A stretch of DNA of 64,000 nucleotides from Psammoneis japonica. Its lineage: Eukaryota. The DNA is taken from NCBI GenBank assembly GCA_008632985.1, contig QPGO01000068.1:62001-126000 (forward strand), written 5' to 3'. The translations under genes were made by a program, and so were the position numbers. A model generated the notes under the pieces. The model was not told the origin of the DNA. It saw only the letters and a program-made list of their open reading frames with translations, and did not search any database. Position 1 is the first letter of the stretch; every line of letters begins with the position of its first letter. This document shows positions 1 to 63,083 of this stretch, one piece after another.

Positions 1-3000
1 TGGTCAGAATTGCACATCACAAACTTGGCAAGTGCTTGGCAGCCCTCAATCTTTTTGCACTCACACAAACTGCTGCGAGGGTCTGAGATCCTTTCTGTTG
101 CCCTTGCAAACCCTTGCAAAGTCTGTGAAATGGCATCTTACAAAAATGTCAGAAATGATGTGACTTTCTGATTTTTGACATCTCTGAGATTGCCCCTGGT
201 TTTTCATTCATTGTGGTGAGAGCTGTGAGATGTGCAGATTCTTGCTGCAATTTTTTTCACCTCCACAGCAAAAGGCATGTTCTCACAAGCACTGGCAACA
301 GCACTGACAGAAAATGCAAATGTTGGCCATGCTCATGCAAACTCGCCATGTTTTTTTTTGTCATTGTCTGCCAGAGGTTCTCAATGCATTGGTGGCAAGG
401 AGACCAAGGGGGGGAGAGGCCAGAAGTTGTTGCTGTTTTGTGCTGGCACATCATTGATGGCATTGAACAAAGAGAATCATCACACAAGCACTCTCATGCA
501 AGGTGCGCTCTTTGGGGCCTGTGCAACATGCTGAGTGCTTCCTTGCTCACAGGAGAATTTGCAGCTGTGTTTAGAGTGCCTCCCCACATGCCATGGAACA
601 TCTGCAAACTGCATTGCACCCACATTTTAAGCCCACCAACAGAGTGAAAAGGTGAAAATTGGTTGCATGGGTGCTGCACAGCATTGTTTTTTGGGTGCTC
701 TCATGTTTTCTTTTGGCGCGCATCACATGTGGTGTGTAGAGGGCACTTTGTTTGCTTTTTCAAAGCTTTTGTTGAAGCCAATGTTGGCACTGTTTTTGAT
801 TTCCTGCTGCAGAGCCAGAGCTGCAATGCATGGCATGTCAACTTTTAAGAACCAAGAGCAGCCTTCCTGATTTGTGTTTGGGGTGCTCACACGGCACAGG
901 AGCTCACATGCCAGGTGGCAACAAATGCAAGAATCCAATGTTGCTCATCAACCACAAGGGTTTTCCAGCCATCAATGTCCAAGTGCTTGAAAATGCAGCC
1001 CCAAACTGTCAAATGTTGGGCACCCAAGCACTGCAAGAAATGCTTGCCATGGCATTTCTTGGGAGCTGTGCTTGACAGCCAAAAGACAGGAGAATGAAAT
1101 CTGAGTCAAGTGTTGTGTCACAGAGGGGCACTGCTGCCCCTCATTGGATGAGGCTGATGATGGCTGTGGCAGGGCAAATTGGGTTGGGTCAGGCACTGGG
1201 CTTGCAGAGCATGAGCCTCACAAGGATGCCTTTGGCAGCTGTTGTCTGAACAAAGGCTGTCACAGCCAATTTCATTGAGTGCATGTGGGGCAATGTCCAC
1301 CAGAAGTTTGGATGTGTTTGTGTGCCTCCATTGTGCAGGTGCCCCATGGTGATTCAAGCACTTGTTCATCTGAACAATTTTGGGACACTGGCATTGTTGA
1401 TGACAATGAGCCACACCCCTCCAGTCAACACTGGACCAGATCAGTGCCAACAGGGTGAGCCACTTCTGCAGCAATGTCTTGTTCTTGCATGAATTGAGAA
1501 GGGAGCTGGTGGGATTTGGCAGGATCTCTGCACGAAGTCTTGCTTTTGTGCAGTGAAAAGAGTGCTCAATCCCAGAACACAAACCCTTGGCACAACAACT
1601 CATGGTGGCTGCCAAAATGAAATGATCAGAAGGTGTGTTTGCTTGGACAAGGCCTCCATTTGCTTCAACAACTTTGCCAAAAAAAAGGAACTTGGCACAC
1701 AGCTGTGGTGTTGCGCGCACATGTCAATGCCAACTTAGATCTGCTTCTTGAGTTTTGAGGTGCAAAAACAACAGCAGTGATGTTGGAAAGCACTGGTTTT
1801 GCTTGTGGATGACAATGTTGTTGCCACTCTTGTCTCTGTTGCAAAACATGCAGTGCTTCTGGAGCAAACCAGGGTGGCCTTTTGGCAAAGGTGCTGGAGG
1901 GCTCTTTGTAGAGCAGAGGGTTGCTGAGAATCTCAATGACTCAAGAATCCTCTGCTGGGCTCCAGCTCTTGGAAGTGCTGAAGGGTTGCTTGTCAATGTG
2001 TGCTCTTTCCTGCAGGAAGATGCAGCACTGCATTGTCGGAGGATTCTTCAAGCTCCCAGATTTTCCTGCAAACACACACACACACTTGTGGCAAAGATCT
2101 CTGAAGCCAGATGCTTTGAAAGATGTGGCACTCTCATCTGCAAGCATCTGCTCTTCTGTTGACAGCTCTTTGGCACCACAACCATGGATGGCCAAGAACA
2201 GCCTTTGGTCAAACGAGAGGGACTTTTCTTGTCACATGGCATGCCACCAGTGTGACTGTCTTGTGTTGGCGGCACTTGGTTGGCATCATTGGCAATGCTG
2301 TGATTTGAAAACAACATGGCATTGTAGATTTTTGCACTCATTCTTTGTTTTTGTTGAGCATGTCTGCTTGTGATGCACTTGGTCTCAGGGTGGATTGGAT
2401 TGTGCTTGCCACATCTGTGCATGAAGGGTCTGCATGATTGCAAACTTGCCAGCTCAGTTTCTGCAAGGAAAACACAGGAAAAGCCATCATGTGCCCCTTG
2501 GTGCTTTTGTCAAAATGTCCATCCATGAGGTTTGCAGGATTTGCAAGGGTGGTGGTTGGGGCCTGGCTCAGTGCCACACATGTTGTCACCCAGCTGCTCC
2601 ACAGTCACATGGACTTGAGAGCTTGTGTGCACAAGTCAGAGCTGGAAAATCATTGGAGCACAGGTGTGCTGGCACCATGCTGCTGATGGTGGACATGCCC
2701 AGACCATGGTGGTGCCTGGCAACACCATCCAAGTGGATGGAAAGCTGGGCATGGCCAGGATGATGGGTTTGCAATGCATGTTCTTGTGAAGGGCAGTTGT
2801 GGAGCAGGAGCACAACAAATGTGTGTAAGACCAGTTCCCAGAACAAGGTGTTCAGCCAAAAGACATGCAACTTTGTGAAGTTGCAAGGTGCAAGCTTCAA
2901 GTGGCTTCTTTCATTTGACAATTGACAGCAGCTGGGGCTCAGGATCACAGAAATCAAAAGCATGACAGTGGGGACTCCTGCCATGACCATGACATCATCC

Positions 3001-6000
3001 AATGCACAGAATCATCTGACAAACTTTCCATGCAGCCAAGTAAAAAAGATGTCAGAGGATGCTTGATTTCATGCAAAGTGCAGGCTGAAACAACTGAATT
3101 GTGCTGGTGTTTTGGAGTCAAAAGTTGCAAAGAAGAGTGTTGGAGCATTCACAAAAATCATCATCATCTTTGGGGTCAGCCATCTGTTCAGCCAGGACAG
3201 GCATGGTTCAGCTGTGTGGCAGCATCTCTCTTTTGGCCAACAGAGCAGGAGTGAAAGCCACAGAAGCAGTCAGAGGGGTGGTGGCCAAAGACTCTCAAAC
3301 AGGAGTGCACTGCACACCACAGAAAATGAGCTGGTCAGGGTCAGAGGGGCCATCTGACAGGGGAGCAGCAGTTTGCTCCAATGTTTGGGGACCAAAGGAA
3401 GCTCCTGAGAGATGGGTTCAACAGCAGTGGAAAGATCCACTGAGGTGCTGGCATCAGACTTGGAAGAGCATTTGCCAGTGTGCTCAGAAGATGGGTTGCC
3501 TTGACACATGCCAACCTTGCCCATTCCCCATCAGTGCACTTCAATTCCAGACTGCATGGCCTCAACATTGGCGCCAGCATCGCTGGTGTTGGCAAAACAC
3601 CAGACAGGCTCAGAAGGTTTCTTTTTCTTGGGAGCACACTGCTGGCTCTTGCCTTGTGTGCACCAGCAACTTGGGGTTGTCTTTTTCTGACCCACTTTGC
3701 ACTCTGCACTGTTCCTTGAATGCAGCAGAACAAAAAGCGCACCCTCGCTTGGCATGAGTCTTGTTGACAAAACCAAGAATGCCAACAGGGCCAAGTTCCA
3801 AGCAATTGGAATTCTTTGGGGCTTCAGCAGGGGGGGGGGGGTCATGGGGAGACAATTGTTTTGCTCCAACTGCTTGAAAAGGTCCAACTTGACAAAAACT
3901 TTGGTTTTGAAGAGCTCAGCCAGAGAAAGCACTGGATGTGCCTTGGACAAAACACCCATCTGCACGCAATCTTGACAAGACTTGAGGCTGCAGATGCAAG
4001 CTTGGTGCAATCCTGGTGGGAGTTGAGGAACAGTGCTGCTGGCTTCTTCTCCTCAGCTGAGTTGATGTCACTGGGGCACTTGCACAGGATGCATCCAGCA
4101 GCACCATCACAAAAAAGACAGATCCCAGGAGGTCTGCTCTTGCAGCATGTGATTGAGCTTGAGACCTCAATCTTTTCACAAAACAATGTTTCCTTGTTTT
4201 GCAGCTTGTTCACAAGGAGTTGAGAGAGATGGGCATCACATCAATCTCATGCTCATCACAAGCTTTGCTGCCAGGAGCTGCAGGATGATCTCTTTGCACT
4301 CTCTCTCAAGACCTCCCTGCACTGCAGAAAAGCATGAAGGTGAGGTCAAACAGATGCACAACTTTTCCATCAAATTTTTTGAGTTGACAAAAGGTTCTTG
4401 TCTGCACAGCTCAACAAGGTCTTGGATGGTCTTTGCAAAATGACCCTTGTTTCCAGCTTTTTGCAGTTGGTCCAAAGGAATGTGCTCAATCAAATCAGCA
4501 GGCTTTGGATGACAATGCTGTGTTGTGCAGTGGCAGCAGGCATGAGTGTTGATCTGCTTGTGCTGGTTGTCCAACAAAGAACCTTTTCCCACCACCACAA
4601 GCAGGTGCACTGGAAAACTTGGCAAGGGGTCAATGGGGGGGCATTTGCAGAGTCACCAAGTCTGTGACAAACTGATCCTTGAGGATTTCTAGATTTGCTC
4701 CAGCAACAAAATGACCATCAGCAGACCTGCTGCTGGGTGGGGATTCAACACAGATGAGCTGTCACAGAGGGACAGGAGCAGCACAACACAGATGAGCAAT
4801 TTGCACAACACACACAGATGACATTGCTGTGCTCCTCAGGCAGTGTCATCAAAAAGATGTGGGTTTGTTCCAGCTCTGCTGTGGGTGGGACCTCATGCTG
4901 CTGGGCTGTGACAACACATTGACATTTTTTGTCATGCAGTGCACACGTCATGCACAAACATTTCTGCATGACTTTGGCAGCATTTTGCGTCATTTTGCAG
5001 TGCAACCATTGAGTGATTCATTCAACAACTTTTGATGTTTTTTCATCTGCAGAGTGGACAGCCTGCTGAGTTTCATTCCTGACATGCAATTGAAAATTTC
5101 AACACATTTCTGCATGTGGCAGTTTCTCATGCATGCTTGCATGCATCGCAAGCTCTGCTGCAAGCTCTCTCCAACAAGGGAACAGCACAAAGCATGAAGA
5201 CATTGCAACAGAGAGAGGGGCAGTGCTGACACTCTTCAAACACAAAGCAAAAATGCCAACAAGACTTTGTCATTGCACAATGCACAGATGGTTGGCCGAC
5301 CAATGGACAAATTGAATCTCACTCAAAGCTGGTCAGAAAGCCTCAATGGACAGCATGACAACTGTTTGGATGTTGTTGAGTCACCTGCAGTGCCCACTTT
5401 AAACCATTCTCAAATGACAACCACAGCCAACTCCTCTCTGCTGACATTTCTGACAGTTTTTCCACCAACTGGCCCAGCTCTGCCAATGCTCTCTGCAGCA
5501 GAAGAGCAAATGGCAAGACTTCCAGATGCCTCCAACAAGGTCAGTGTGTTGTCACAATTCCAGCGCCAGCCACTGCACATTGTTTTGATGGGTCCAATGG
5601 CATCTGTTCATGTTGAAGAAACATGCCCTTCTAACTTGGTCACAGCCGGCCATTGACTTGAACCAACTGCCAGCAATCTTTTGAGAAGGCCCGCAGCAAG
5701 TGAGACATGACACAGCATTGCCGTTGTGAGCATGGCATGTGCAGGGCAGGATGCAGGACAAATTTGAGTGAGCCAATGGGTCCAACTGCCATTTTAGCAC
5801 ACATGCACACCAAATCTTGTGTGGAAAAACATGCAAATTTTTTTGAACTGGCACACCAAAAATGAACTCCACAAGCTCAAAAATTTTGAGTGTCTCAAGA
5901 GGGCATTCCAGAGATCACCTGGCACACTTTTTGCACAAGGAAACTGCACACCAGAGCCTGCATGCATTTCCACCACACCATGCCACAGAAAACAGAAAGT

Positions 6001-7620
6001 GCTGCAATCTGTGGCTGGTGCTGAGCAAAATGTGATGAGATCCGCCAGATGCTGGTTGCTTGCAGAGCTCATTCCACTGGCTCAAACAATGCAAATGAGC
6101 TGAAGGTGGCTTGCAAGTTTCCTCTGTGATGGAACACACAAGCTTCTTTTTTTTCCATTCTGAAAGCTCTGAGTGCAGTTGACTGTCAAGGAGCATGCCA
6201 CACATCATTTGGCTTCTGGCTGGTTGCACAAAAATCATGACACCAGGGAGCCAACAAATGAGGAAAACAACAAGCACAAGATTTCTGGCTTCTGAACTGT
6301 TTTGCATCCAAAAGACTGCATCCACAACTTCAGAGCCACCATGATGCACCAGTCTGCCAAGTCCAACTCCACATTGCCATGTGGAGGCAGGCTGAGCTCT
6401 TGCAAAAAATGTGCAATGACAGATCCAAGCTCTCTTGAGAGCTTGTGAAAGTTTGGATGCCACAGCTTGAAGTCACCACATTTGTTGTGAACTCATGCTT
6501 GTGCCATGGTGCCTTTCACACACTTCACCTTGTTTGACAGATTGCCGTGGCCATCTTGCTGCAGAAGCAACATTTCTGTGGAGGAAATTTGTCTCAGGGG
6601 CAGCCCACAATGAGAGAGACTCACAGAACAAAACAACAACATGGAAAAAAAAAACACACACGCAAGTTGAAATGACGCAAATGTGAAAAGCCTCAACAAA
6701 ATAAACCATGTCATGAGTGGCAACTCATGAGGTCTTCCACAGCACAACAAAAATGACATCACAGACACCTTTTCAGCTCAAAATTTTGCCACAATCTGCC
6801 CATGTCAACCTGGGTGTTCTTGAGCTCATCTTGTCTCTTGTGGTGCAATCCGTGCACCAAATTTTGTTGAGAGGATTCAAGCAAGAAGTGCCTTGGCAAT
6901 GATTGGATTTTTGAAGCTAGCAAAATCAAAATGCAGTTGTCCACATCATTGTTTTGCACATTGTTTTGAGCTGCAAGCCAAAAAAATTCCAACACTGTCC
7001 CACAGGGCGAAATGTGTGCTGAATCTGCACCAACTCCGGGTTTTTGCACCAGGCAGCACAGAAGAAAGTGAGTGGGCTGATGACTCCACTGGAGCACGGC
7101 TTGAGAGACACAGCTGCAGCATTGCAAATGCAGTTGTTCATTTGGATCTCAAAGGCAAATGGGGTTCTGGAATGCGCTGGCGACAGCAGCAAACTCTGCC
7201 ACAAAACTGACAGCACCAGTGCATTGCATTGAGGTTGAAGCCACTTTGGATGATGCAAGCTTTTGTGTGGGTGTGTGAAAGATGATGGTGGGCACCTCTC
7301 TCAAGGTTGCAAAATGCAGCACAGAGGATGGCAGATGTGCGCAGCAGCAGCGCACGCGTGCATGTGCTTTGTTTTGTGACAGTGCTTTTTTCCAGGAGAG
7401 ATTGTTTTGCTTGTCCCCACTCTCCTCTTGACAAGATGCTCAGGTGACACAACCCACAGCCCACTGGCTTGGCAGCAGTTGAGAAGAGTGCTGCACTGCT
7501 CTCTGGCTTGATGCGTCACACCATGACCACATGCCACCACACACAGCGGTGCAATGCTGTTGCTGGTGTGTGCTGCTGGCAACCAGCTTTGATGTTTGTT
7601 GATTTGTTGTCTTTTGCACC
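1..7620 (-). mobile_element. Heavily degenerate non-LTR retrotransposon (LINE with RT and RNase H, resembling the diatom Ambal-like type)
   Basis: Minus-strand fragments occur in LINE ORF2 order: RT-like LELKCTDGEWARL (~3.5 kb), VARHHHGLGMST (~2.7 kb; cf. GPxxYGGLG), ELASLQSCRPFMH (~2.45 kb; cf. LxxxNRCRLYL), RNase H-like PSALPRAGAQQRIL..HCMFCNRDKS (~1.9 kb), and WSSVDWRG..KIVQMNKCL (~1.4 kb). There are many frameshifts, and TpA and CpG are almost absent. Ends are approximate and other repeats may be included. Confidence 0.55.
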
Positions 7621-8069
7621 CAGGCAGTCAACCAAACAATTGCCCAATTGCAATCGATTTGATCGCGATCGAATTGCAATCTGGATTTCACTCGAATCAG
7701 TGATTTAAATTCATGACGAAAAAGGAATGGAACTTTTGGCTTTTAGCCTCACAAGTAAGCACCCCCGCGGCTCTTCCTTTCGTTTGATTGGCAAACGTCA
7801 GCGACAATTATGGAAATGACGAGGCTTTTGCAAATTCACCGAGAAACAGCCTGCTTGTGTCATCCGGTACTGGCATCGTATCTGTATGAGATTCTACATA
7901 CACACTGTCACACGTCATTCTCCAGTACAATAATGACATCATTCGCCGCATCCGGCGGGCGCAGCGAAAGGTTCTCCGTTGATCCTACGAGCACGCACGG
8001 TATGTACCCAAACGATGCACAGAAAACGTCGAAAAGCACTCTGAAAGTTCTGAGGCGAAAACGACAACG

Positions 8070-10077
8070 ATGAGCCTCGAAAGTCCATGGAAGCGAAGGC
8101 CTTCTGAGCTTTGGGGAAAGCAGCCAAGGACTGTATATGTGACAATACCAGATGGGGCATCGAAAAGCGGCCCACATAGAGCGACGCTTTTTCGCAAAAG
8201 GAGCAACATGTCTGTCGTCACGTTGGACGAAAGCCTGCACAAGAAATCACTTCCAAAAGACAGTTCAGTAAATTCTGTAACAACGAAATCGACAGAAGCA
8301 ACAACAGTGTGTCCAGAGAGCGTAGTGCATTGGGGTGAAGTGCACATTAGGGAATACGCACGAATATTAGGAGACAACCCGGTGAGTTCTCATTGGTGCG
8401 AGGGAGAATTTCCTCAGCCCAAAGTCTACTCTGGAAGTCCTTACTTTTCGAGCTAATCGCGTTTCATTGTTCTACTTATGTTATATGTTATAGTCGTGTA
8501 CGGCTGGTCCACCCATTGGGTAAGTTCATTTGACGGCGCATTCTGCCGGATCATCATTGCCCCTGCGCGTTCCGTGGTTTTCGACGGAGGTTGCTCGGGG
8601 TGACGTGACGTGAGAGTTCGCCGTTTCTACGGCAGGTCTGCGTAGCCTCCCGTACTACTCTTCGCACCTTCACCTCCGGGTGCCTCGCGCATCAGCCTCA
8701 TTTTTCTCACTCTTGCTCTTTTTCATGTGATGTTGTTGCTTCAGAATTGGATGGCCACATGGAGAGACTGTGGTTCTCTCCGTTGACAGACACGAGGCAT
8801 CTCGACCTCCCCGAAGAACAACAACAGAGATGTTGTTACCCAGAGAGGTTCGTGAGGAGATGCTCTTGAATGAGTGGGGTGTACCTCGATCGAAAATGGC
8901 GGCTGCAATTCGGGAGAACGTAAAAGCTAAGAGTCGAAGACGTCAAACCGTAACAAACATGAATGAGAGGACGGAGCATTTTGAAATCTTTGTTGAAAGT
9001 GCCGCTAGAAAACTAAAGCGACTGGTGAAGTTCAAGCGAAGTCCCTCTCGAGAAACGAAGGAGATGCAGAAACAGGCAGAGAGAGCTGCCGCTTCGGTAA
9101 TCGAAACACTTTCCTGTTCTTCTTTTGACCCTGACGACTTTCCCTCGGAGGATTTCAGTGGTTTGTTCTCTGTGGCTTCGACCCAGAGTCTACCGCCGGC
9201 TCTATTTGACGCTTCTTCTTGCGACAATTCTTCCACCGCACAAATGTCTGTTGTATCAGAGGCCGACAAGGCGTCTGGCTTCGTTGCCAGCATCGACAGT
9301 TTCGACATTACCGATGAGTATATACAGGATCCCGACTTGGAATCTGTCGCCGATGAGCCGAAAGAAGCTGCGGAGGCGGAAGGAGATTTGAGAACTGAAA
9401 AGGGCGACTTGGAGCCAAAATCATCGCTGGTGGCCGCAGAGCACACAGAGAGTTCAGAACCAAACAACTCGGAGCCAGAAAAGACGCTTTTGACTGTAGA
9501 GCCCACCGAGAGTCCAGAAACCTCAAACGAAGAGATGGGAATGCGATTCTCTGCCAACAAGGAGGAGAAGGAAATAGGGTCGGATGAAAGCCCGCTTGTC
9601 AAGAGTCAGTCAGAGAAGGGACGGAGGAAAAAGACAAGCAAAACTTGCGAGGAAGCGACGTCGACACTCGATCAATTCAACCCTGAGAAGGAAAAAGAGT
9701 TTGTAATAGAGAAGAGTAATGTGAATATGGACGAAAGAATAGATGAAGAGGGAAAGGAGGAAACGGAGATCCAGCGAGTTGCAAAATCACGCTCCCGATC
9801 GAAACGAAGATCAAAAAGAGACAAGGATCGCAGTCGTGTAAGAAGGTCAGACAGTGACGTCGAGAAGAAAAGAAGGTCCGACAAAGACAAGAAGAAAAGC
9901 AGTCGCACCCGAGAATCGAGCCGTCAACACGCTGATGGCAGCTCCGAAGAACGTGCGACCAGTGCTCGGGAGAAGGAGGAGGAGTCGACGAAGCCACCGA
10001 GAACGAGGCGTCCTATTGTCATCAGTGAACATGGCTGCGAAGAGACGGTAGCCAAGCTTCGATGGTCAAACTCATAA
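8070..10077 (+). CDS. Hypothetical protein of a diatom-type family (VHWGEVHIREYARILGDNP-SCTAGPPIGIGW motif) with a long charged low-complexity tail
   Basis: Exons 8070-8381, 8494-8519 and 8745-10077 join in frame through GT-AG introns. The true start may be ~7934 if a one-base frameshift near 8045 is an assembly error. Confidence 0.75.
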
Positions 10078-10582
10078 ATTTATGTAAATATTCAATTTCA
10101 TGCTAGTTTTTGTGGGTCGCTTCCGTTTGGACGGCGACCGCGGCGCAGACAGTACGTACCATACGGCTTGGCCATTTTGATTTCAAAGAGAGATTCTTGC
10201 TCATGGCTCACTGATTGGGCTTGTGCGTGCTGGATGAGAGGTCTTGTACCGGTACTCGCTCGTACTCGGCCAGAAGGTCGCCGGTAGCCTTACAAGGTCT
10301 TCTCCACATTTGTTTTTTTTATTGCCAGCAACGTAAACGTCGATCGAGAGAGCATCTGATCGTCGCCAATGCCTAAGTTTCGTTCAAGAGCGCACCAGAT
10401 ATTATAAAGAAAACAAACAATAGAATATCTCTTACATTCGATCACATGGTTATGAAGCTACCGTACAAAACGGCGGACACGATAGAAAACAACGGAAACT
10501 TCGTTGAACTGGTATTTCGTGGTCAAACTGAGTATCAGTGGGCTCAGATGTAAGTCCGCCTACAACTTTTATGAAAAATACG

Positions 10583-33926: not shown

Positions 33927-34064
33927 TATGCACTTCGATATAGATGTCGCCTCTGGATTTTTGACACCTCAGTAGTCATTCTCTTCCCGTACATTTTAAA
34001 TTTATTCGACTATCGGTAGTTCATGAACGCCAATCTCAAGTTCACACCCTTCATCTACCAGAGC

Positions 34065-37230: not shown

Positions 37231-37299
37231 TGCTCTGCTTTTGTTTACACTCGTTCTTCAAGCATGGTGCATGTGGAACCTGCAGCACATTTTCATCAA

Positions 37300-49903: not shown

Positions 49904-50052
49904 ATTTGACGTTGTGTGACGCATGTGCAGATTTCTGCGCAATGTGCTGATCTAATCGAAGTGTTCCATTTTACGAAAATTTCCGCATTTTTACGGTTGG
50001 GGTCGCCAAACAGTTGCACAGTGGTTGAGCATCCTAATCTAATGTTTGCGTG

Positions 50053-53000: not shown

Positions 53001-55703
53001 TTGAAGCACTTCGTCGTACGATGCAGTGTCATCTTTCTGGGTGTCTTTTAGGATGCACTCAATCGTACACTGAGCAGATGGTCCAGGCATCAACAAAGCA
53101 ATGTTTGTGTTGCATGTCAGTTTTGATCTGCTTGTTGCAGGGCACGACACGTTTTGAAAAGCATCGTGCTTTCTCCTCTTTGGAACAACTTCCTTCACGC
53201 ACCGATGCGCAAAAGTTCCATCCCAGCTGAACCACTTTATCTGAGTGTCATCTGCGTTCCTTGCCAAATCATTTGGACACAAAGCAGCTGGTTGCCTGTG
53301 ATGGCAGTCACCCAGTTTGAGCTCCTCTTGTTTCCTTTTCCTTGACTGCGTGTCCAGTTCCTCGTGTGGGGTTTTTTTGTGCATTTTACGCAACTCCACG
53401 CATTTGGGAAAACACGACTTCGTAACGTGCATGTGATGGTTGTAAGCTGCGTCCGGTGTGCATGCCTCCATTGTCCCTTGCGGACCACTTCGCTGGCATT
53501 GTACACACATTGCTTTTAGTTGCTTTGCATGGTTGTCTGGATGGCGAGTCAGGCCAGGCACACGGTGCCGTGACTGTAAAAAGCTTTCTACAAACTCGAC
53601 GTTTGTCCAGCACTTGGTGCAGTGACGACAACAAGCAAACATTCCGTTCTTCGACTGCTGGCCGTCTTTGCGCCTCAGGTTTCTTAGCTGTTGGTCGTCT
53701 GCTGCTTTTGGAGAGGTGCGACACATTTTTGGCACTGTGCAGTCATGATCGAATGCTTCACGCAATGCGTCAGTGCTGAAGTCCTCGCTGCAGATTAATT
53801 CCGTGCTGCAGATCTTCTGAACTATGTTGGCAAGGCACTCAGCACCTTCACGTCGGATCTGTCTTGCTGGCGAATGCAGTTTCTCTCTTGCATTGTTGAT
53901 CGATGCGAACCAGATCTGCATGTGTCCGTGTGCTGCCAGACGTCCCTGCTCCTCAACTGCGGCTAAAAATGCGGCTGGCCTGCCAATGTAGAAGTTAAAG
54001 TTTTCTCTTGGTTGGTTGGCACTCAGATCCCAACCCACTGCCTCTTCTGTTGCAATGTCAAACAAGCACTCGAATGCAAAGGCTGTTAGACCGGGAAACT
54101 TTAGATGCAGTTCATTACGTTGCTCAGCCCTGCCAGCAAGAATTTCGTCCATCAGTTGTGTCACGTCTTCGTTTGGGTCCAGGATGACACCCGAGTGCAG
54201 TTGCACAAGAAACGAATTTGCATCGTCCGGACTGACGGTTAAGAAAATGCCACCCTGACCAAAATGATGCTGACAAGTTTCGGCGTTTCTCCTCATTTTC
54301 TTTGCTGCTTCGTCACTGTGTGGCAGAGATGCAGATGCAACGTCGAGTGTGCACAAAAAGTGGTGCCCGAGTCCACAATCTCTTCTCTTGCCCAAGTTGC
54401 GATCACAAACAGCTCTGTCCACATCATCCACTGTCAGTTTGTTTGCAAACTGTGCAGCCTGATTCTTGTCCCTGACTTTCCACCCTGCACTCTGTGGCAT
54501 CCTTTGCTTCATTGTCAAGTTGCAGCATGTTAACACGAAGAGCTGCTCGTGGAAGTGAGGCTGGGAAATCCGTGCCAAGTGGTCGGCAGAGTGTGCAAGG
54601 TTGGTGCCATCTGTGAGACTTCCGTCTTTCTTCATTCTCGTCTCATTGATTCCTCCTCTGCCAAAAGGAAACTGCAGCAGACACGCATTGATGAAGTTGT
54701 TGCCTTTGAAATCACTCGCAGATTCTTTAGACAACTGTGCTTGCACCTCTAAATCAAATCCATTGGCAGCAGCTTCGTGTGCAAGATCTTTGAAGCAGCC
54801 CAGGTTGCGCTGACCACCGGTCGCAGGAGACATGGTTCCATCAGGAAAGCAAATGTGAAATGACTCTGAGGTCTCAACATTCGCATTTTCTCCTTCTTCT
54901 TCGCTGGTGCTGTCGACAAGTGCGGGATTCCGCAGATTGCGCCTGGCTTCATCTAGATTTGTCTGTTGGCACACCCACTCTTGGTCATGGCACAACAGCC
55001 ATTCCATCGCCCTCAGCATGCAGTGCGTCCCAATTCTGTTCTTTGAACGCGCAAGTTGTCTTTGCTCCGGAGTCATCTTTCCAGTCATCAGTGCAATCAC
55101 ATTCTGATGTAAATTCAGTGCATCGAAGTGCACAACAGTTCTTACGATGCTTTGCATCTTGACTTTGTAGCATGTCAGACTTCCCCGAAGCTTCTTCTGT
55201 TTGCCGCCAAGGTGACTGAAGCAGCATCCGCATGTTTTCACTGGTGTGAGCATTGCTGATTCTGCTTCGGTCAGAGACAACAGTTCGTGCGGCGGGGTGC
55301 CAAAACAGCAGTTGTTCGCCATCGCGCACATTGGCGTGACAGCTCTTCCCAGGCTTCTTCGGCATTCGCTGCAGCAAGTGAATCCGTCGACGCGTCGTCT
55401 GTCTTCCTGCACTGCGCATTGGGCACGGGGAGAAAGCAGCAGGTCTTTGATCCAATCAGCATCTTCATGCTCTGCAGTGCAGCAGGACTTGAGACGATCA
55501 GATGTGCTGTTCCAGTCTGAAGGGGTGAGTGAGTTTCTTGCTGATTCCAATGTTTCGAGCGGCAAGTGGCAAACTTCTCTAGGTTTCAGCAGAACGTCAC
55601 AGACTGAACATGCGTGTGGTCTAAATTCTCCATCTCCATGTGGACAAAGCATCTCAAACTTTCTGTTGATTGCACTGCAAACACGGGAGTTGGCCTCGTC
55701 CAT
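50053..55703 (-). pseudogene. Helitron Rep-helicase (HUH replication initiator + PIF1 helicase), about 1900 aa, with one break near 50800-50940
   Basis: DUF6570-like PMCAMANNCCFGTPPHELLSLT; Rep motifs FGQGGIFLTVSPDD and VEEQGRLAAHGHMQIW; PIF1 motifs GAGGSGKST, TALTGVAATVLKGDTIH, DEISF, GGVNIVFAGDLRQLEPV, QLPF..ATAGHKLQG and HVVLSRV. Many conserved Tyr are replaced by Cys/His. Confidence 0.92.
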
Positions 55704-55789
55704 CTTGGTTTAAGATGACACTTTGACTCGACAAATTTCAAGAAGTCACTCAGCAAAAACAGTTGTTTTTTCAGTGCGATCACCGTGAA

Positions 55790-56470
55790 GCTGCGATCGG
55801 TGCTGTCCAATCACCACAGCAATGTGTGTTTTCTCACCACCTGCAGCACTGCGACTGGTGTCGTCCAGTCACCGCAGTGGTTCTGTCTGGTTGATCAACG
55901 AACCGCGTCGGTGCCATCCGTTCACCGCAGCGCTGTGTCGTCTTCTCACAACCTGTGCAATCAGGTCACTGTGAGTGCTGCGACTGGTGCTGTCCAGTCA
56001 CCGCAGCCGAGTTAATTGGTTGCTTGACGAACTGCGTCGGTGCCACCCGATCACCGCAGCGTTGTGTCGCGTTCTCACAACCTGTGCGATCAGGTCTCTG
56101 TGAGAGCTGCGACTGGTGTCGTCCAGTCACCGCAGCTGAGCTTGTGCGTCATCTCACAACCTGCATTACGAGGTGCAGCGCTGTGTTGTTTGCTCACAAC
56201 CTGTGCAATCAGGTCGCTGTGAGAGCTGCGACTGGTGTCGTCCAGTCACCGCAGCCAAGTGAATTGGTTGCTTGACGAACTGCGTCGGTGCCATCCGATC
56301 ACCGCAGCGTTGTGTCGTGTTCTCACAACCTGTGCGATCAGGTCTCTGTGAGAGCTGCAACTGGTGTCGTCCAGTCACCGCAGCTGAGCTTGTGCGTTGT
56401 CTCACAACCTGCGTTGCCAGGTCACTGTGAGAACTGAGAACTGCGATCGGTGTGGCCCAATCACCGTAGT
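55790..56470. repeat. Tandem array of hairpin-forming units, period ~119-129 bp
   Basis: The core GACTGG-N6-CCAGTCACCGCAG starts at 55853, 55982, 56111, 56230 and 56359 (AACTGG variant). It alternates with CGTCGGTGCCAYCCGWTCACCGCAG and CTCACAACCTGTGCRATCAGGTC..TGTGAG units. Confidence 0.92.
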
Positions 56471-56626
56471 TGGATGCTTTTCGTTTCCCTTTGCGCAAAG
56501 GTTCTGTCACAAAAAAGTGAGACGAAAGTGTGCCTCTTTCACCTCAACGGAAGAGTGACGTGTGCGTTCCTCCCACATCCTTCTTCGCACCAGACGTGCA
56601 ATGTCCTGCTTAGTTTCGTCGACGTT

Positions 56627-56735
56627 GAACATCCCATGGGACAAGATTTGGATCTTGTTCAAGTTGTTTCGACCATCTGCTCTGAACATTCCATGGGGCA
56701 AGATTCGGATCTTGTTCAAGTTGTTTCGGCAATCT
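56627..56735. repeat. ~57-bp tandem duplication
   Basis: GAACATYCCATGGGRCAAGATTYGGATCTTGTTCAAGTTGTTTCG occurs twice. Confidence 0.85.
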
Positions 56736-57270
56736 TGGTGGTGGGCGCAGCTTTGCGCAAATTCCGCAGAATCACGCTTTGACGAGTGGCGGGGCAGTTG
56801 AGTCAGTTGTGTGGCAATGACAATGCGATTGACATCATTCGTGTTTCCAAAGTGCGCGCGAATCCTCCAAATGGGTGATGGGCCCACCTCAGCCAACTGC
56901 CAGCACAGTGGTGACAGCGATGGCGTCGACCGTTTGGCGACTAGATTTCGTGCGCGATGGCCGCGCGGCAGCAACGGCTGAAATGCACATGAAGCACGGA
57001 CGGAATTGCACGTGATTTTACGCATTTTCAGCAAATTGGTGCGACTTTGCGTGCTCCGATCCTTGCATCTGTTTTGTTCAAATTGAATCCATGCACCACT
57101 TGCAAGTGCTGACACCTGGAAGGTTGCCTTGTTGCAGTTCGACGTGTTTGGATCTAGTTGCTGACGTTGCCAGTTCTCCTTGGCATGATGTGCGCAGCTC
57201 TGCTGGGTCTTTCTTGGCACTTCTGAACGATTGCACTTTTTGTTCCCACAATTTCTCTCCGACTGATTCG

Positions 57271-58143
57271 ATGGCATGCAAAAGAAACACAACGACCTCC
57301 CCGGCTGCGAAAGCCAAAGTCGCCGAAACCAAACAGAAGAAGGCAAAGACGAAGTTTTCTGATGCTCTGTTGAAGAAACTGGGTCCGCCCCGCAAGACCA
57401 ACGGCTTGACCGACGACGACCTTAAACCGGAAGACCACCTTGCCAAGCACGGGTTCAAGCTTTCCAAATCTGCCGGTTCTGACGATGGCAGCCATTCCGA
57501 TGAGGACGCCCTCCTGCGCTGCACCACCATCACTGTCGGCCGCAAGAAAGGCGTTGTTTTTCGTCTCCAAGCCAAGAGTCCCCTTTTGACTGATGTTTGG
57601 TCGGAGAAGGTTCTGTTTGACAACCTTCGCAGCAGGACTCCGTGGGCGGTTCAAGTCGGATTCCACCCTTGTGCTGGCAGGTGGGTTCACGAAGGCGAGT
57701 TGCAGACGAACGCCAAGAACTGCGCCGTGCGTCTCTTCTTCATCTTCCTCGAAGAAGTCCCAACCGATGCTAAAGTGCGCGGCCTTGGGAAGTGCATTGC
57801 GAAGCAGCTCAATGATGACCCTGAGAACAACACCGAGGTCTTCGTTGAAGACGACTTCTTCTGGATGAAGGATGCTGTTTGGTCTGAAGTGATCGGCAAC
57901 GAGGCAGCGCTTGCCGAGCTTCAGAAGGAAGGTGGTCAGTTTCACATCGGTTGGTGTGCCCAAAACAAGAACTCACTTCACAGTTGCTTCTACGAGGGGT
58001 CGTTGCCTGTGGAACTCTGTCGTCTCATTGGAGCTCCGGCAGAAGAAGCTGGAGAAGAGGCCGACGATGATGTCGAGCTCAACTGTGAAGTTGACCTGAA
58101 CGTCGATGACGACTTGGTGCTTCAGGACAGCGACGAAGACTGA
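57271..58143 (+). CDS. Hypothetical protein with a basic N-terminus, globular core and acidic C-terminal tail
   Basis: 290-codon open frame from MACKRNTTTSPAAKAK to DDDLVLQDSDED with coding-like third-position C/G bias; no domain recognised. Confidence 0.65.
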   Translation: MACKRNTTTSPAAKAKVAETKQKKAKTKFSDALLKKLGPPRKTNGLTDDDLKPEDHLAKHGFKLSKSAGSDDGSHSDEDALLRCTTITVGRKKGVVFRLQAKSPLLTDVWSEKVLFDNLRSRTPWAVQVGFHPCAGRWVHEGELQTNAKNCAVRLFFIFLEEVPTDAKVRGLGKCIAKQLNDDPENNTEVFVEDDFFWMKDAVWSEVIGNEAALAELQKEGGQFHIGWCAQNKNSLHSCFYEGSLPVELCRLIGAPAEEAGEEADDDVELNCEVDLNVDDDLVLQDSDED

Positions 58144-58230
58144 GTTGTTTTTTTTTTTGCCGGTGCAGTGTAAATTTGCAAATGTTTGGCAAACCAAGTG
58201 TTGATTGCAACTCAGCTTTCCTCTGTCTCT

Positions 58231-59217
58231 TCAAGTGTGTGCCATCTCCGACGACAACTTGTCGTTACTGCGAAGCAATGGCGAATTGAGCAGAGCAACT
58301 AGCGTGTGACGTCCAGTGCAGTGACAGCAAAAAAACAGTTCAGTTGAGTTCTTGAGCAAAATTGGCCATTTCGCGATGGGCAAATGCTTCCGTTCCAAGT
58401 GTGTCAGAGTGGGACGTCGCATGTGCTGGCTGGTTGACTGAGAAGTCTCCTCTTTCTTGGCGCACTTGTGGAAGACGAGATGTTTCACGTCTCCGCTGTG
58501 CCACAAAAAGTCGCCATCATGGCAATCCGCCGTGAAGGACTCGCACATCCACTCTCCCGCGTGCGACGCGAACAGCGGATCTAGCGCCACCACCACGGTC
58601 CCAGCACGACACAACTTCGAAAGCATCGCCTCTGCCTTCTGCTGTGTGTTCTTGTCATCGACCATGCGGGAGTTGCAGTTGTTGAAGAACACCTTGAGTC
58701 CTTTCTTTTTCCACAAAGGAGCCAGCCTCTCGTCCAAGAATGACTTGTTGATCAACTCTAACCCGCCGTTCGAGCGAAGGCCAGCACGATGAGCCCAACG
58801 TACAGCCTCTTGGTGACGATCGTGGTCGGCCTCGATGCTCACCACGGTGCAACGGCGACGAAGTAACTTGAGCCCGATGCTGGGTCCGGCAACTCCCCCG
58901 CCCATGTCGACAGATGCATCACAGGTGTGATTCACGCCAAGAAGGCGTTCGTTCAAAAACACTTCGCTGCTCAAAGCGAAGCCAACTTCGCCGCCGTGCG
59001 AAGATCCGCTTCCGTCTCCGGAGACACGCCTGCTCTGGAACGCGGAGTCCGGAGCCGTTTGAAGACAAAACTCCCCAACACTTCTGCAACGATGGTTCAT
59101 CGCATCCAACCTTGTGGCAACATCAACCTTGCTTGCAGCGGGTTCGACCAGACATCGCGTTTCCAAACCAAACTGTGACGTGCACAGAATGCGTAAAATT
59201 ACCGTCGCGCCCTCCAT
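58231..59217 (-). CDS. DOT1-like (histone H3K79-type) class I SAM-dependent methyltransferase, mutated
   Basis: Ordered motifs SHGGEV (cf. YGE), DASVDMGGGVAG (cf. DVFVDLGSGVG), VVSIEA (cf. GIEI), NKSFLD, VFFNNCN (cf. IFVNNF), LCRAGTVVVAL (cf. LKPGTRIVSL) and FLWHS (cf. VSWT). Confidence 0.7.
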   Translation of the reverse strand: MEGATVILRILCTSQFGLETRCLVEPAASKVDVATRLDAMNHRCRSVGEFCLQTAPDSAFQSRRVSGDGSGSSHGGEVGFALSSEVFLNERLLGVNHTCDASVDMGGGVAGPSIGLKLLRRRCTVVSIEADHDRHQEAVRWAHRAGLRSNGGLELINKSFLDERLAPLWKKKGLKVFFNNCNSRMVDDKNTQQKAEAMLSKLCRAGTVVVALDPLFASHAGEWMCESFTADCHDGDFLWHSGDVKHLVFHKCAKKEETSQSTSQHMRRPTLTHLERKHLPIAKWPILLKNSTELFFCCHCTGRHTLVALLNSPLLRSNDKLSSEMAHT

Positions 59218-59692
59218 GCGGCGAAATTTTCAAACGCGGCGTGCTGCCTCCACCTGCGCATGGAGCGACGTGTGGAGTCATTTTGAACAGATGTGTGGAC
59301 GCGTTGAAACAATAAGATGCCTTTGGGCGACAAAATTTGTTTTGAATCTCGGCCTGCTTCTCATCGTCACCGCACTTGCACATCCGTGTAATTCAAACAC
59401 ACGAGCTGGCATGGCACGTGACACACTTCTACGCGAGAACTCGTGCTGAGATTGCCGTGGGATGATCCTCCCTCCGCGGAGACAAAAACAACGCGACAAC
59501 ACTTCCGTCATCATGTTTTGAAACACATTTCAAATTGAGACACACCATGTCGCAACTACCTCGTGCCTCGCTGCGTCGTCCTGCCAACGACAAGCACTTG
59601 TCGTGATCGAGTTACAGCCGGTCTCGACAGTGTGGGGGTTTGGGACGTGCAGCTCGCAGCCCGACAACAAGCAAACACTTCTCGCGATCAGG

Positions 59693-59858
59693 TTTCGACC
59701 CCACTCCCCTGGAGTCCGCTGGTCCCTGTCAACAGAGTTTTGCTTTGGGTGCTCTTGAGGCAACGGAAAGCAGACACATCTCTTGATTGGGTTTTGACCC
59801 CACTCCCCTGGAGTCCGCCGGTCCCTGTCGACAGAGTTCTGCTTTGGGCACTGTTGAG
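59693..59858. repeat. ~66-bp direct repeat, two copies ~99 bp apart, between the divergent DOT1-like and dioxygenase genes
   Basis: TTTYGACCCCACTCCCCTGGAGTCCGCYGGTCCCTGTCRACAGAGTTYTGCTTTGGG starts at ~59693 and ~59793. Confidence 0.88.
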
Positions 59859-59936
59859 ACGACAGTGACAGTGTCAAGCAGCAGAACATTTACCGGCAAG
59901 TTCGCACACACGTTCTCTGCGAACACCGCATCGTCA

Positions 59937-60980
59937 ATGCGCACCAGGACACACGAGAATGTGTTGAGGGCTCAACCGCCACTTCGTAAGGCCCACCGCA
60001 GCCGCAGGCGAATCCGCAGCCGCGCCAGCAGGAAAACATCCAAGATTGCTCGCCTCGTTCCACTCGCACCGTGCGCCACTGAGAGTCTCTCCATGCACTG
60101 CGTAGCCAACCGCACTCTAGTTTATAACGGCGACTACACTCAGCCTGCACCACCTTGTCTTGCTGACATTGACTTTGCCAAATTGGCTCCTCTGGTCGTC
60201 TGTGACCCTGTGCTCGATCTGAAGCCTTTCTTTGGCTTGGACGGTTGCCACTGCAACAACACCTGCACCCTGCTGCCGCGTTCTGCTGTGGTGTTCAGCT
60301 CCCCCAACCCAGCAGAACCAGTTGCTCAGTGCCGAGCGCTCGAAGCACTGGAATGCTGCACCGCCCAGTCCACCGTGCGCGGCAAACAACGCGTTGCCTT
60401 CATGGAGATGGACAGGAGCAAGCATTCCACGATTGGCCTGGCTGCCACGAGATGCACTTGAATTTCTTGCAAGCAGCCTGGCACAGCCGACCAACACACT
60501 CACCACCTCACCAGACTTCTTTCACGCATGGAGCACCTTGTCAATGAGTGCGTGGACTGTGCCATCCTCAAGGGCATCGCTCGTGTCAAAAAGTTTCACA
60601 ACTGGAAATCCCTGGTGCGGTCAGATGGCATTTTCTCCTCTCTGGCGGCTGGGCGCAATGTCTTCCTCAACGCCCATCAGGACCAGGACTTCTTCCTGTC
60701 AGCAGTCACCGTGGTGGGAGTCCCTCCGTCCGGCAGCCACACCATGAATGACGGGATTGTGGCGTGCTTCTGCTTCCCTGCCGAAGGCATCTCCGTTGCA
60801 CTCCGGCTTGGTGATGTCATCATTTTTAACCCCACCAAGCACCACTGCATCTCCAGCAGGACAAACTCAAACGACGAGTTCTTCTGCATGTCTCTCTACC
60901 TGAAGAGTGCTGCAGTGGGCAAGAACAACAATTCAGTCCCCCTTTCTCTAGAGGAAGAGACCATTCTCAGGCGACTGTGA
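59937..60980 (+). CDS. Fe(II)/2OG-type dioxygenase resembling the TET/JBP family, with a frameshift near 60460
   Basis: IFSSLAAGRNVFLNAHQDQDF (HxD), FCFPAEGISVALRLGDVIIFNPTKHHC (distal His) and CMSLYLK. The upstream frame (VRGKQRVAF..KHSTIGLAATR) abuts it and probably encodes the N-terminal half. Confidence 0.65.
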
Positions 60981-61185
60981 CAGCACAAAATGACTTGCTA
61001 AATTTGCGTAAATTTGCTGACTTTCTGTGCTCAGGCGACTGTGCAGGTGCCTGCCAATTTGCCAGATTTGCGCAAATTTACCGACTTTCTGTTCTTCCTC
61101 GTTCCCATTTTTCGAACCACAACTGGGGCCACGCCTTTCCAACCAATGCTGCAGTTTCGCTGAAAAACACCAACACACTGTGCTG

Positions 61186-62799
61186 CTAATTTACAGAGCA
61201 CACTACACGGCAAATGTTTTGCCAGACGCAGAGCTTCTCCCCCCCCGACTTGGGGAGCAGACGCGATTTCTTCTTCCGATTCATGGCACCCGACGTCGCC
61301 TTCCTCTTCTTCTTCTTCTTCTCCGATTTGTCCAAGTTGCATCTGCAGAGAAATTCCTCCCCGGGCATGATTCGCTTCGTGACTGTCAAGCACCCGTCAT
61401 TGTAGAACTTGCAGTTGTTGTCCGCATGTTGGCTTGCCTTGATCTTCTTCTTGTCCTTGAACGACTCGGTGGCATCGTTCACGCAGTGCATTCCGAGGTA
61501 GAGTGGATGGGAATTCTTGTTCCCTGGACCGCTAAAATCAAGCGGTTTTGGCTCCACTGTGACGCAGTGGCCCTCACTGTCACGGATGGTGGAGCAGCAC
61601 ATGCTGTGGTCTTCTCCAAACTTGCTGTCGTGGTCGCACCACGAGTGGCTCCTCGTCGCACCGGGCACCCTGGGGCCCACGTAGATTCCAACCGTGCTGC
61701 CTTTCTGGAACTGGCGCAAAGCAAAAAAACCAATGCCTGCGCCCCTCCGTTGCGATGCGCGTAGCTCGCCCACCTCCACCTCCTTGGGGCCTGCGGAGCA
61801 AACGGACTTTTCGAGGTAAAACAACGCAGGTTGAAGTGACACGGCGCCTCATCCAAATGTGCACACTTCTGCACTTGCTCTCTTCACGAGGCAGACCAGT
61901 GCGAGCGACCACCCCACTTCGAAAGCCTCGACGGTGGTCTTGAACACTTTGTTGCTCTTCGGCGTCGAGTCTGGGATGCCCCTCTCGCCGACTTCCGTGC
62001 GGTGCCTCCACACCCACTTGCAGTGTTCGCCGTGAGCATTCGCGACGGCTTCAGGGTCGCTCCTGATGCACCCCAGTTCTCCCAGCGCGGGGAACCAGAG
62101 GTCGGGATCATTCGGTGCATCCTTCATCAGGCACATGGACTCCTGGAAATCATTGGATTTTTCGTGCCGCAACACCCAGTCCCACAAGTCGAATGACGGA
62201 TCGTTGGGGTCCGGAAATTGCTTTCCTTCTTCTTCCTCTTCCGCCGTTGCTTTCGCGACCACTTTGGCCGCGGGCTTGGCTGCCTCCTCGCTTTTGCCGC
62301 TGCAAAAAGGTGGGACCTCCGGTTTCACAAAGGTGGCCTGATCACCCACCAACTCGATCTTGCAACCGGCCTCAAGGAGCTGCTCGGCGGTGTGACCCAG
62401 CTGCTGTGCTTCATTCCAACCACAAATTTGAAAGGTTGGCTCCGGCGGCACGGCTTTCTCCCTCTTTTCAGTTTGGGACTGCGCCGGCTTCTCTGACATC
62501 CTTGCGCGTTCGGACTCGACGGACACACCCTCGGCACTTCCCTCGGCGCCAAGTGCAGTCATGGCAGCTGCCGCCGCGCCTTCGGCACCCGTGAGTTCTG
62601 CCATGACTTCCGGAGCTGCTGCATCCTCTGCTTTGCCAGACGCAACGATGTTGTCCTCCGCCATTCTAGCGCCGTGATGACAGAGCTGCACTGACTGCTG
62701 TGTGGTGTGCTGCTTTGTTCCAGCTGTTGGCGATCCACATCCTTCTGCGCACGCAAACGCATGACACTTTGCACCAAATTCCACGCAGCGCGTCTGCAC
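61186..62799 (-). CDS. SET-domain protein (putative lysine methyltransferase) with a long N-terminal region and one in-frame TGA at 61849-61851
   Basis: Motifs SQRRGAGIGFFALRQFQKGSTVGIYVG, LGMHCVND and NCKFYNDGCLTVTKRIMPGEEFLCRC, followed by a Lys-rich tail. ORFs 61849-62799 and 61186-61842 are in the same frame. Confidence 0.8.
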
Positions 62800-63083
62800 C
62801 TGTCTGCGTCCGTCTTCACTGCTGCGCGCACTGCGGTGCTGCAGCGCACCCTTTCAAACCTTCATCAATGTTTGTTTTTTCCTTCCTTTTCCTTTTCTCT
62901 TCTTCTTCTATCTGGCTGGGAGGAACTGCTGGATAGCCGGTGTATTCGATTAAGGGTGGTCGGTTGCTACTTTTTTAAGCTCGAATTCGGCCGAACAGCT
63001 CGCATTTTGCATGATTTTTCCTGAATTTCACCGTGCTTCACCGTGGTGAAAACAACAAGCCATGAGTCTGTGACGGAGGTGGT

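Follow-up and report, generated by a model that had tools for sequence, protein, structure and literature searches.

It has recently been reported that integrated viral DNA in the rhizarian Bigelowiella natans is hypermutated de novo at TpA dinucleotides, and this is the described process that the DNA analysed here resembles most. In that preprint (Mettrop et al., bioRxiv 10.64898/2026.01.13.699255, 14 April 2026), mutation-accumulation lines of B. natans carry 302 nuclear single-nucleotide mutations, of which 231 lie in two viral regions, an integrated nucleocytoplasmic large DNA virus (NCLDV) and a virophage region; 230 of these 231 are A>G or T>C changes, all of those at TpA. The rates are about 1000-fold over background, and the mutations occur in some lines only. 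The same study describes 124 TpA-poor, CpA- and TpG-rich clusters in the genome, together with a group of TpA-poor coding sequences in which reverse transcriptase (RT) and DDE domains are enriched. It proposes an ADAT2-like DNA adenine deaminase, with an ADAT2 candidate named, and its Discussion adds that ADAR and ADAT substrates carry a U 5' of the edited A. Our literature search found a TpA>TpG/CpA signature only in this preprint and found no report of it from a diatom. Here we describe such a footprint in the diatom Psammoneis japonica, in a stretch of 64,000 nucleotides (nt) of assembly GCA_008632985.1 (contig QPGO01000068.1, positions 62,001 to 126,000 of the forward strand), hereafter the window. 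Its transposon-derived blocks, which include a Helitron with a Rep/Hel gene and remnants of a Ty3/Gypsy element, have undergone a context-specific change of TpA to TpG or CpA, an A:T>G:C transition on either strand. The process has acted on at least two unrelated element classes and has left the adjacent genes untouched. A preliminary description of this DNA, made from the letters alone, had raised the possibility of an undescribed pathway, a view overtaken by the report of the same signature as de novo mutation in B. natans (bioRxiv 10.64898/2026.01.13.699255).

The two cases agree in that the changes are nearly only A>G/T>C, fall at TpA sites and give both TG and CA products, and in that they are confined to foreign or mobile-derived regions, the remaining DNA being normal. 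They differ in host and target, the host here being a diatom (stramenopile) and the targets a Helitron and a Gypsy element, in contrast to the rhizarian and its viruses. Erasure is near saturation here, with observed/expected ratios (O/E) for TpA of 0.03-0.16 as against a Rho of 0.45 for B. natans NCLDV, and strong CpG decay co-occurs with it. A strong rule of flanking bases is also found here, RTAY being lost far more than YTAR (R, purine; Y, pyrimidine), whereas the main text of the preprint mentions neither 'trinucleotide' nor 'flanking', nor diatoms. Finally, de novo events were observed in B. natans, whereas the process here is known from its footprint alone.

Better-known processes share parts of this footprint. 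Fungal repeat-induced point mutation (RIP) turns C into T, for the most part at CpA, so that new TpA and stop codons arise. Like RIP, the process described here inactivates mobile DNA by irreversible, context-specific transitions and spares genes; unlike RIP, it destroys TpA, so that its direction is opposite and no stops arise, and the sequencing depths give no sign that it depends on duplication. Decay by deamination of 5-methylcytosine (5mC) gives the same products, TpG and CpA, and is present in the window, with CpG O/E of 0.09-0.48 in the older blocks, but it cannot remove TpA, the loss of which occurs here even where CpG is intact. Clusters of deaminase-type transitions with a nearest-neighbour rule are also typical of APOBEC3, ADAR and ADAT2/3 (TadA). 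Their substrates are RNA or single-stranded cDNA, and the footprints they leave are strand-asymmetric, whereas here both strands of DNA elements have been hit, including those of a DNA transposon. The claim of the preliminary description that a TpA-specific A:T>G:C process acts on both strands, distinct from 5mC decay and opposite to RIP, is supported.

Over the whole window the O/E is 0.32 for TpA, 1.41 for TpG and 1.42 for CpA, and the dinucleotide landscape has two states. The gene blocks (7900-34900, 44900-46500 and 63000-64000) show TpA O/E of 0.55-0.57, CpG of 1.04-1.13 and TpG/CpA of 1.0-1.3. R1 (1-7600) retains 16 TA and 41 CG in 7600 nt, with O/E of 0.03 for TpA, 0.09 for CpG, 1.83 for TpG and 1.97 for CpA, and R2 (35000-44700) retains 40 TA, with corresponding values of 0.06, 0.18, 1.93 and 1.87. 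The values in the same order are 0.15, 0.48, 1.58 and 1.73 for 46600-50900, 0.16, 0.70, 1.49 and 1.69 for the Helitron open reading frame (ORF) at 50940-55703, and 0.13, 0.91, 1.42 and 1.38 for 55704-62900. G+C content varies from 0.43 to 0.57 in 1-kb bins and is alike, 0.47-0.55, in depleted and gene regions. Blocks poor in TpA and rich in TpG/CpA beside normal genes, as the preliminary description had them, are thus confirmed by these ratios. The borders of the blocks are sharp, within about 100-300 nt of neighbouring gene DNA: that of R1 lies at about 7650-7706, dense TA returning at 7706, while dense TA ends at 35056 and returns at 44804 on the two sides of R2 and returns at 62909 after the Helitron. 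ApA is not lowered in the blocks (O/E 1.2-1.4) and ApT is not comparably depleted. The loss of TpA is equally strong in the non-coding and out-of-frame DNA of the blocks. The density of TAA and TAG is 0.7-3.2 per kb in the blocks and 7.5-8.2 in genes. No sense codon can become a stop through a change of TA to TG or CA, whereas TAA and TAG are lost by it; long ORFs are therefore to be expected in such blocks and carry no meaning.

Counts expected at the O/E of the gene blocks give the size of the loss. R1 should hold 285 TA and 458 CG, as against the 16 and 41 observed; 46650-48660 has 12 TA where 72 are expected and 37 CG where 133 are expected, and 48670-63000 has 131 TA of 453 and 782 CG of 1004. 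The CpG deficit exceeds the TpA deficit in both R1 (417 vs 269 sites) and R2 (501 vs 314 sites), and the combined deficit of TA and CG roughly equals the excess of TG and CA (686 vs 776, 815 vs 989, 156 vs 188 and 544 vs 688, block by block). In the two oldest blocks, R1 and R2, more than half of the TpG/CpA excess thus comes from lost CpG, and the preliminary description, which had overlooked the CpG depletion and derived the whole excess from TpA, was mistaken on this point. DNA methylation in diatoms is predominantly at CpG (PMC5124317), and this accounts for the CpG decay that goes with the TpA loss. TpA loss is separable from CpG decay because 55704-62900 has lost its TpA and kept its CpG nearly intact (0.13 and 0.91), and CpG loss without TpA loss is seen in no bin of this window. 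The TpA process runs beside ordinary CpG>TpG/CpA decay and is faster than it.

The effect on a protein is clearest in the Rep/Hel gene. The element at 48670-62900 is, judged by its predicted protein with a Rep and a PIF1-type helicase, a Helitron: Helitron_like_N (PF14214), DUF6570 (PF20209) and PIF1 (PF05970) are found in one protein, which has 1372 homologues at E<=1e-3 and aligns over its full length to homologues of 1600-1900 amino acids (aa). A change of frame occurs near 50820-50940, and the last 250-270 or so residues of the homologues align to 50062-50853. The ORF of 1587 aa contains 4 tyrosines (residues 179, 572, 754 and 896), exactly the number the preliminary description had counted, together with 5.1% cysteine and 4.4% histidine, whereas the tyrosine content of the 150 best homologue representatives has a median of 3.3% (5th-95th percentile 1.3-4.9%). 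For reference we aligned 40 homologues from P0122-P0199, each longer than 1500 aa and with more than 2.5% tyrosine, and took as conserved the 470 columns in which at least 60% of the 40 agree. The window ORF matches this consensus at 370 of the 470 columns and keeps all conserved cysteines (16/16), glutamines (16/16) and tryptophans (11/11) and nearly all histidines (15/16). In contrast, its 21 conserved-tyrosine columns hold 12 Cys, 4 His, 2 Phe, 1 Ser and only 2 Tyr, so that Cys or His accounts for 16 of the 19 changes. The same replacement is seen against P0161, a 312-aa fragment with 73% identity that is the closest intact relative: at the places of its 10 tyrosines the window has 6 Cys, 1 His, 2 Phe and 1 Tyr. 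In eight control homologues outside the alignment set, however, tyrosine is kept at 103 of 123 such columns and Cys or His occurs at 2. At residues 879 and 883, which we take to be the catalytic tyrosines of HUH Y2 Rep proteins, 39 of the 40 homologues have tyrosine in both columns, the displayed ones reading Y-x-x-x-Y-x-x-K, and the window has cysteine in both. This copy is dead: both motif tyrosines are cysteine, and the frame is broken near 50820-50940. Most of the altered motif strings quoted in the preliminary description (ALHCLCRP, ELCCKL, APCR, LSAADEIS and STMTDL) occur in the ORF, but HVVLSR is absent from it.

Single-step codon changes were inferred for the 100 conserved columns at which the ORF differs from the consensus. 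TA>TG accounts for 17 and TA>CA for 12, CG>CA for 10 and CG>TG for 2, and other A:T>G:C and other G:C>A:T changes for 3 each; 25 transversions and 24 multi-step changes, two classes that contain ordinary family divergence, and 4 ambiguous cases make up the rest. Among the 47 unambiguous single transitions, 29 are thus TA>TG/CA and 12 CG>TG/CA, and TpA sites contribute 29 of the 32 inferred A:T>G:C transitions. All codons at Ile>Thr changes are ACA and all those at Val>Ala changes are GCA. Codons for tyrosine, isoleucine (ATA), valine (GTA) and leucine (TTA/CTA) have been rewritten with frames staying open, and the two-tyrosine motif of Rep has been destroyed. The depletion of TpA is, on this evidence from codons, mutational and does not reflect native composition.

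A second element class tells the same story. The Ty3/Gypsy remnant gives Pfam matches to rve (E 7e-8) and RT_RNaseH_2 (E 2.8e-6), and in a tblastn search P0272, the one homologue found, aligns in 4 segments of 35-46% identity. None of the 21 tyrosines of P0272 is kept; the window has 10 Cys, 6 His, 4 Phe and 1 Ile in their places, 16 of 21 being Cys or His. CpG-type changes are also present, 19 in all (R>Q 6, R>C 5, R>H 5 and R>stop 3). Tyrosine has thus given way to Cys or His, Ile(ATA) to Thr(ACA) and Val(GTA) to Ala(GCA), with no stops made by the TpA process, in support of the missense changes that the preliminary description had read from the Helitron. Within the remnant, codons inferred to have been TAT have become CAT in 5 cases and TGT in 2, and those inferred to have been TAC have become TGC in 8 and CAC in 1; this small sample hints that the 3' neighbour may steer which strand is attacked.

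Survival of TpA depends on its flanks (chi-square P = 2e-23). Its density relative to the gene blocks is 0.40 for YTAR and 0.15 for RTAR/YTAY but 0.016 for RTAY, of which 33.5 kb retain 6. Among trinucleotides, depletion follows the order TAT > TAC > TAG ~ TAA in every block; ATA/TAT is the most strongly eliminated within RTAY, and YTAR survives best. Both products are abundant on each strand, as in R1 with 885 TG and 915 CA.

Relatives of the Helitron show that the family is not TpA-poor as such and that the signature recurs elsewhere. The 25 metagenome loci that encode Rep/Hel relatives have TpA O/E of 0.31-0.86 with one exception, a metagenome contig (L009) with a TpA O/E of 0.01 and 13 TA in 7761 nt. 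Its Helitron ORF of 1882 aa is fully open and contains 0.1% tyrosine, and its conserved-tyrosine columns hold 13 Cys, 4 His, 5 Phe and 1 Tyr. The choice between Cys and His differs from that of the window at 5 of the 13 sites where both have one or the other, and none of its 13 TA is in an RTAY context. The contig is TpA-erased throughout its 7761 nt, flanks included, with a CpG O/E of 0.30. Among protein homologues, 8 of the 150 representatives have less than 1.5% tyrosine, and in five the conserved-tyrosine columns hold Cys or His at 17/17 (P0137), 5/5 (P0143), 9/13 (P0129), 12/22 (P0212) and 6/11 (P0248). A close relative at the DNA level, of either the window element or L009, was found in none of the 25 loci, whose best DNA cross-matches (about 66-71%) lie between other loci.

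The reads bear on whether the depletion is real and on how it is targeted. In sequencing run X1, 96% of the sampled 31-letter words of 3000-10000 are present, no RNA run being listed for that stretch, and contigs built from its reads by exact 31-letter words cover 44001-48942, which includes 46650-48660, at a depth of about 64 with 3 differing letters and one gap. Independently built contigs thus reproduce the depleted sequence, and the possibility raised in the preliminary description that it might be absent from the raw reads does not hold; X1 is possibly the assembly's own sample, so that an artefact of assembler or polisher is excluded while one of the library is not. Over 48670-62900 the summed contig depth is 2147-5608, compared with about 64 for single-copy DNA, summed depth not being a copy number. 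X1 shows 386 variant places, 359 of them transitions (A>G 99, T>C 109, C>T 77 and G>A 74). A contig joint, 48498>63006, skips 14,507 nt; we considered it as an empty-site allele without the Helitron and rejected it as too weak, the joint being present in one contig (depth 68) with 21 nt on one side. The short repeat at 62909-63350 is a high-copy sequence that escaped the TpA process, and many length-variant joints at 63031-63306 and a 13-nt perfect hairpin at 63084-63158 fall in the same region.

Taken together, the best explanation of the whole, which we hold to be somewhat more probable than its rivals combined, is TpA>TpG/CpA hypermutation of the B. natans kind by adenine deamination, serving as an in situ defence on silenced foreign DNA. 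The process would be of the kind seen in the integrated viruses of B. natans, where TpA is hypermutated de novo. Most likely, the enzyme would be a polynucleotide deaminase resembling ADAT2/TadA, which requires a T on the 5' side and turns adenine in DNA into inosine; it would probably act in situ on silenced foreign DNA, and the outcome would probably be an irreversible genome defence. Several observations weigh against this explanation. One window shows the footprint only, with no enzyme, DNA modification or de novo event visible, and because TpA is its own reverse complement the sequence is silent on whether A or T is the attacked base. A model of 5'-TAY recognition per strand, tested on Tyr>His versus Tyr>Cys changes (L009 left aside), was not supported: it predicts Tyr>His mainly after a purine, whereas His occurs 4 times after a purine and 6 after a pyrimidine and Cys 14 and 8 times. 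The flank rule itself is real. Among the best-supported 40 of 411 variant rows, from which contexts were read, 37 (31 sites) lie in the multi-copy element, and of these 31 sites only 4 are TpA vs TpG/CpA, as against 18 CpG vs TpG/CpA, 5 double differences of CA vs TG and 4 others. On these rows the recent differences between copies are mainly CpG decay; most of the TpA loss seems common to the Helitron copies and may predate their last amplification, so that action in situ on each copy is only a possibility. The local consensus of the multi-copy Helitron may therefore already be TpA-poor. One reading of this is amplification in trans of a copy already mutated and dead in Rep; the alternative is that these 40 rows do not represent the rest. 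Furthermore, 46669-48669 is TpA-depleted at single-copy depth, and 62909-63350, which lies in the deepest bin (62677-63343, summed depth 8980), has normal TpA and CpG. A depleted block at single-copy depth and a TpA-normal high-copy repeat together contradict targeting by repeatedness, and the restriction to repeats claimed in the preliminary description is not supported. Lastly, R1, R3a (46650-48660) and most of R2 have no identified transposon content. The same description's naming of the depleted blocks as transposons is borne out for the Helitron and the Ty3/Gypsy remnant, the only transposon contents identified, whereas the other ORFs among the 160 scanned from the blocks gave no transposon domain.

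Since none of the counts tells A>G at T-A-Y from T>C at R-T-A, an attack on thymine has to be weighed against deamination of adenine. A dioxygenase of the TET/JBP type or similar would modify T in RTA of silenced DNA to 5-hydroxymethyluracil (5hmU) or 5-formyluracil (5fU), and mispairing with G would give T>C; 5fU does mispair with G, and dinoflagellate 5hmU favours TpA. We know of no modification of this type in diatoms, however, and none is visible in the sequence. The authors of the B. natans study favour deamination (bioRxiv 10.64898/2026.01.13.699255), and we regard the attack on thymine as unlikely. Equally doubtful in our judgement is editing during transposition, in which single-stranded rolling-circle DNA, cDNA or RNA would be edited in the manner of APOBEC3 or ADAR and copies would arrive mutated, with none of the change arising in situ. 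The sharp borders, within 100-300 nt of the neighbouring gene, the TpA losses that seem mostly common to the Helitron copies and the excess of Tyr>Cys over Tyr>His, at 12:4 for the Helitron and 10:6 for the Gypsy remnant, are in keeping with it. A single-stranded intermediate would give one product, though, whereas both are abundant (17 TG vs 12 CA changes); the B. natans mutations arise in situ in a single-copy insert (bioRxiv 10.64898/2026.01.13.699255); and erasure is deepest in old, CpG-poor blocks, which fits slow accumulation.

The loss of TpA and CpG in the same blocks could also come from error-prone patch repair in methylated heterochromatin, where T:G mismatches derived from 5mC would call in mismatch repair and a polymerase like Pol eta would make A>G errors at WA (W, A or T). 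Pol eta prefers WA motifs. The predominance of CpG methylation in diatoms (PMC5124317) is in line with such a route, yet mutagenesis of the Pol eta type should also hit ApA, whose O/E of 1.2-1.4 shows no depletion, and should give many transversions, whereas transitions dominate here. Of the 19 changes at tyrosine codons only 3 are transversions, Tyr>Phe being besides a common natural replacement; and 55704-62900, where TpA but hardly CpG was lost, points to a TpA loss independent of CpG deamination. We consider patch repair quite improbable. A native scarcity of TpA, through selection against TA or a TpA-poor donor genome, would agree with a local Helitron consensus that may already be TpA-poor. 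At the level of the family, the refuting case named in the preliminary description, that copies already lack TpA and tyrosine, is contradicted by the median of 3.3% tyrosine and the normal TpA of 24 of 25 related loci, and with conserved tyrosines replaced, both motif tyrosines included, and non-coding and out-of-frame DNA depleted equally, native scarcity is very improbable. The least credible explanation is an artefact of sequencing, base-calling or polishing at modified bases. It draws on the fact that X1 may be the source sample of the assembly, so that its library is not independent, but 31-letter-word contigs at a depth of about 64 reproduce the depleted single-copy block, the signature recurs in L009, which comes from an unrelated metagenome assembly, and in further public proteins, and strand-mixed miscalls would also create CpG, whereas CpG is depleted.

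The features of the window are collected in the table.

Table. Features of the 64,000-nt window of P. japonica contig QPGO01000068.1 (positions within the window)
Feature	Position	Strand	Remarks
R1	1..7650		TpA- and CpG-erased DNA; no Pfam match in its ORFs
Gene block, internal control	7700..35050		GST-like, HUWE1-like HECT ligase, EEP nuclease/phosphatase, protein kinase (Pfam); O/E TA 0.55, CG 1.04, TG 1.09, CA 1.07
R2	35060..44750		TpA- and CpG-erased DNA; begins with Ty3/Gypsy pol remnants
Ty3/Gypsy-type pol remnant (RT end, RNase H, integrase)	35197..36968	+	several frames with stops
Gene island	44800..46640		normal dinucleotides, TA O/E 0.57, CG 1.10
Violaxanthin/diadinoxanthin de-epoxidase gene	45541-46632	-	Pfam VDE, E 9e-71
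R3a	46650..48660		TpA/CpG-depleted; X1 contig depth 64-68, equal to neighbouring gene
Multi-copy Helitron-like element, about 14 kb	48670..62900	-	TpA-depleted, CpG mostly kept
Rep/Hel gene	50062..55709	-	ORF 50940-55703 (1587 aa) and C-terminal part 50062-50853 in another frame
Rep two-tyrosine motif, here QCTIECILK	53046..53072	-	both Tyr codons are TGT/TGC
Short, very deep repeat	62909..63350		normal TpA and CpG density

When 160 stop-to-stop ORFs of the blocks were scanned against Pfam, only rve and RT_RNaseH_2 were found, plus three chance-level matches, and R1, 46650-48660 and the rest of R2 yielded no domain among these ORFs. Within the window no copies common to different blocks were found; short tandem duplications are confined to the Helitron, and their differences, mostly CpG vs TpG/CpA, are uninformative on TpA. 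The non-Rep part of the Helitron (56507-62853) has several ORFs of 270-375 aa on both strands with 0-0.5% tyrosine and no Pfam family, one of them with a chance-level SET match (E 0.0075); the lack of TAA and TAG is probably all that keeps these frames open. Among the genes, the de-epoxidase (VDE) protein has 342 relatives at E<=1e-3, none closer than 81% among the best 120, where the named ones are from the diatoms Cyclotella cryptica, Conticribra weissflogii, Fragilaria crotonensis and Nitzschia inconspicua (69-79% identity); this points to a host among the diatoms or near them, with no proteins of its own in that collection. The HUWE1-like HECT ubiquitin ligase at 12314-25086 has DUF908, DUF913, UBA, UBM and HECT spread over four consecutive long ORFs in different frames, a layout that implies, as predicted from the frames, a gene of about 12.8 kb with three very short introns or frame changes.

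In summary, the finding would provide a second, distant host and new targets, Helitron and Gypsy, for a hypermutation described in 2026. If true, it would add a phylogenetically distant lineage to a mutational genome defence that is so far known from one 2026 preprint only, here at saturation and on classical transposons instead of viruses. The flank rule is a constraint that any candidate enzyme must reproduce. Open reading frames lacking TAA and TAG in such DNA are not evidence of function, and the rewriting of Tyr to Cys or His hides transposons from Pfam, a transposon domain being found in only 2 of the 160 block ORFs. Screening algal genomes and metagenomes for low TpA combined with high TpG+CpA could bring such regions to light. 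Should the signature occur in one of the genetically tractable diatoms, the enzyme could be looked for in that species. More tentatively, and in our view possible though not the likelier case, we speculate that diatoms, chlorarachniophytes and environmental protists share an ancient and widespread TpA-directed DNA-editing defence of the SAR supergroup (diatoms being stramenopiles and chlorarachniophytes rhizarians), which prefers RTAY far above YTAR, works faster than 5mC decay and lastingly silences transposons and integrated viruses through the loss of their Tyr, Ile and Val codons in frames that stay open. If this were so, old mobile DNA in these organisms would have been made invisible to homology-based annotation.

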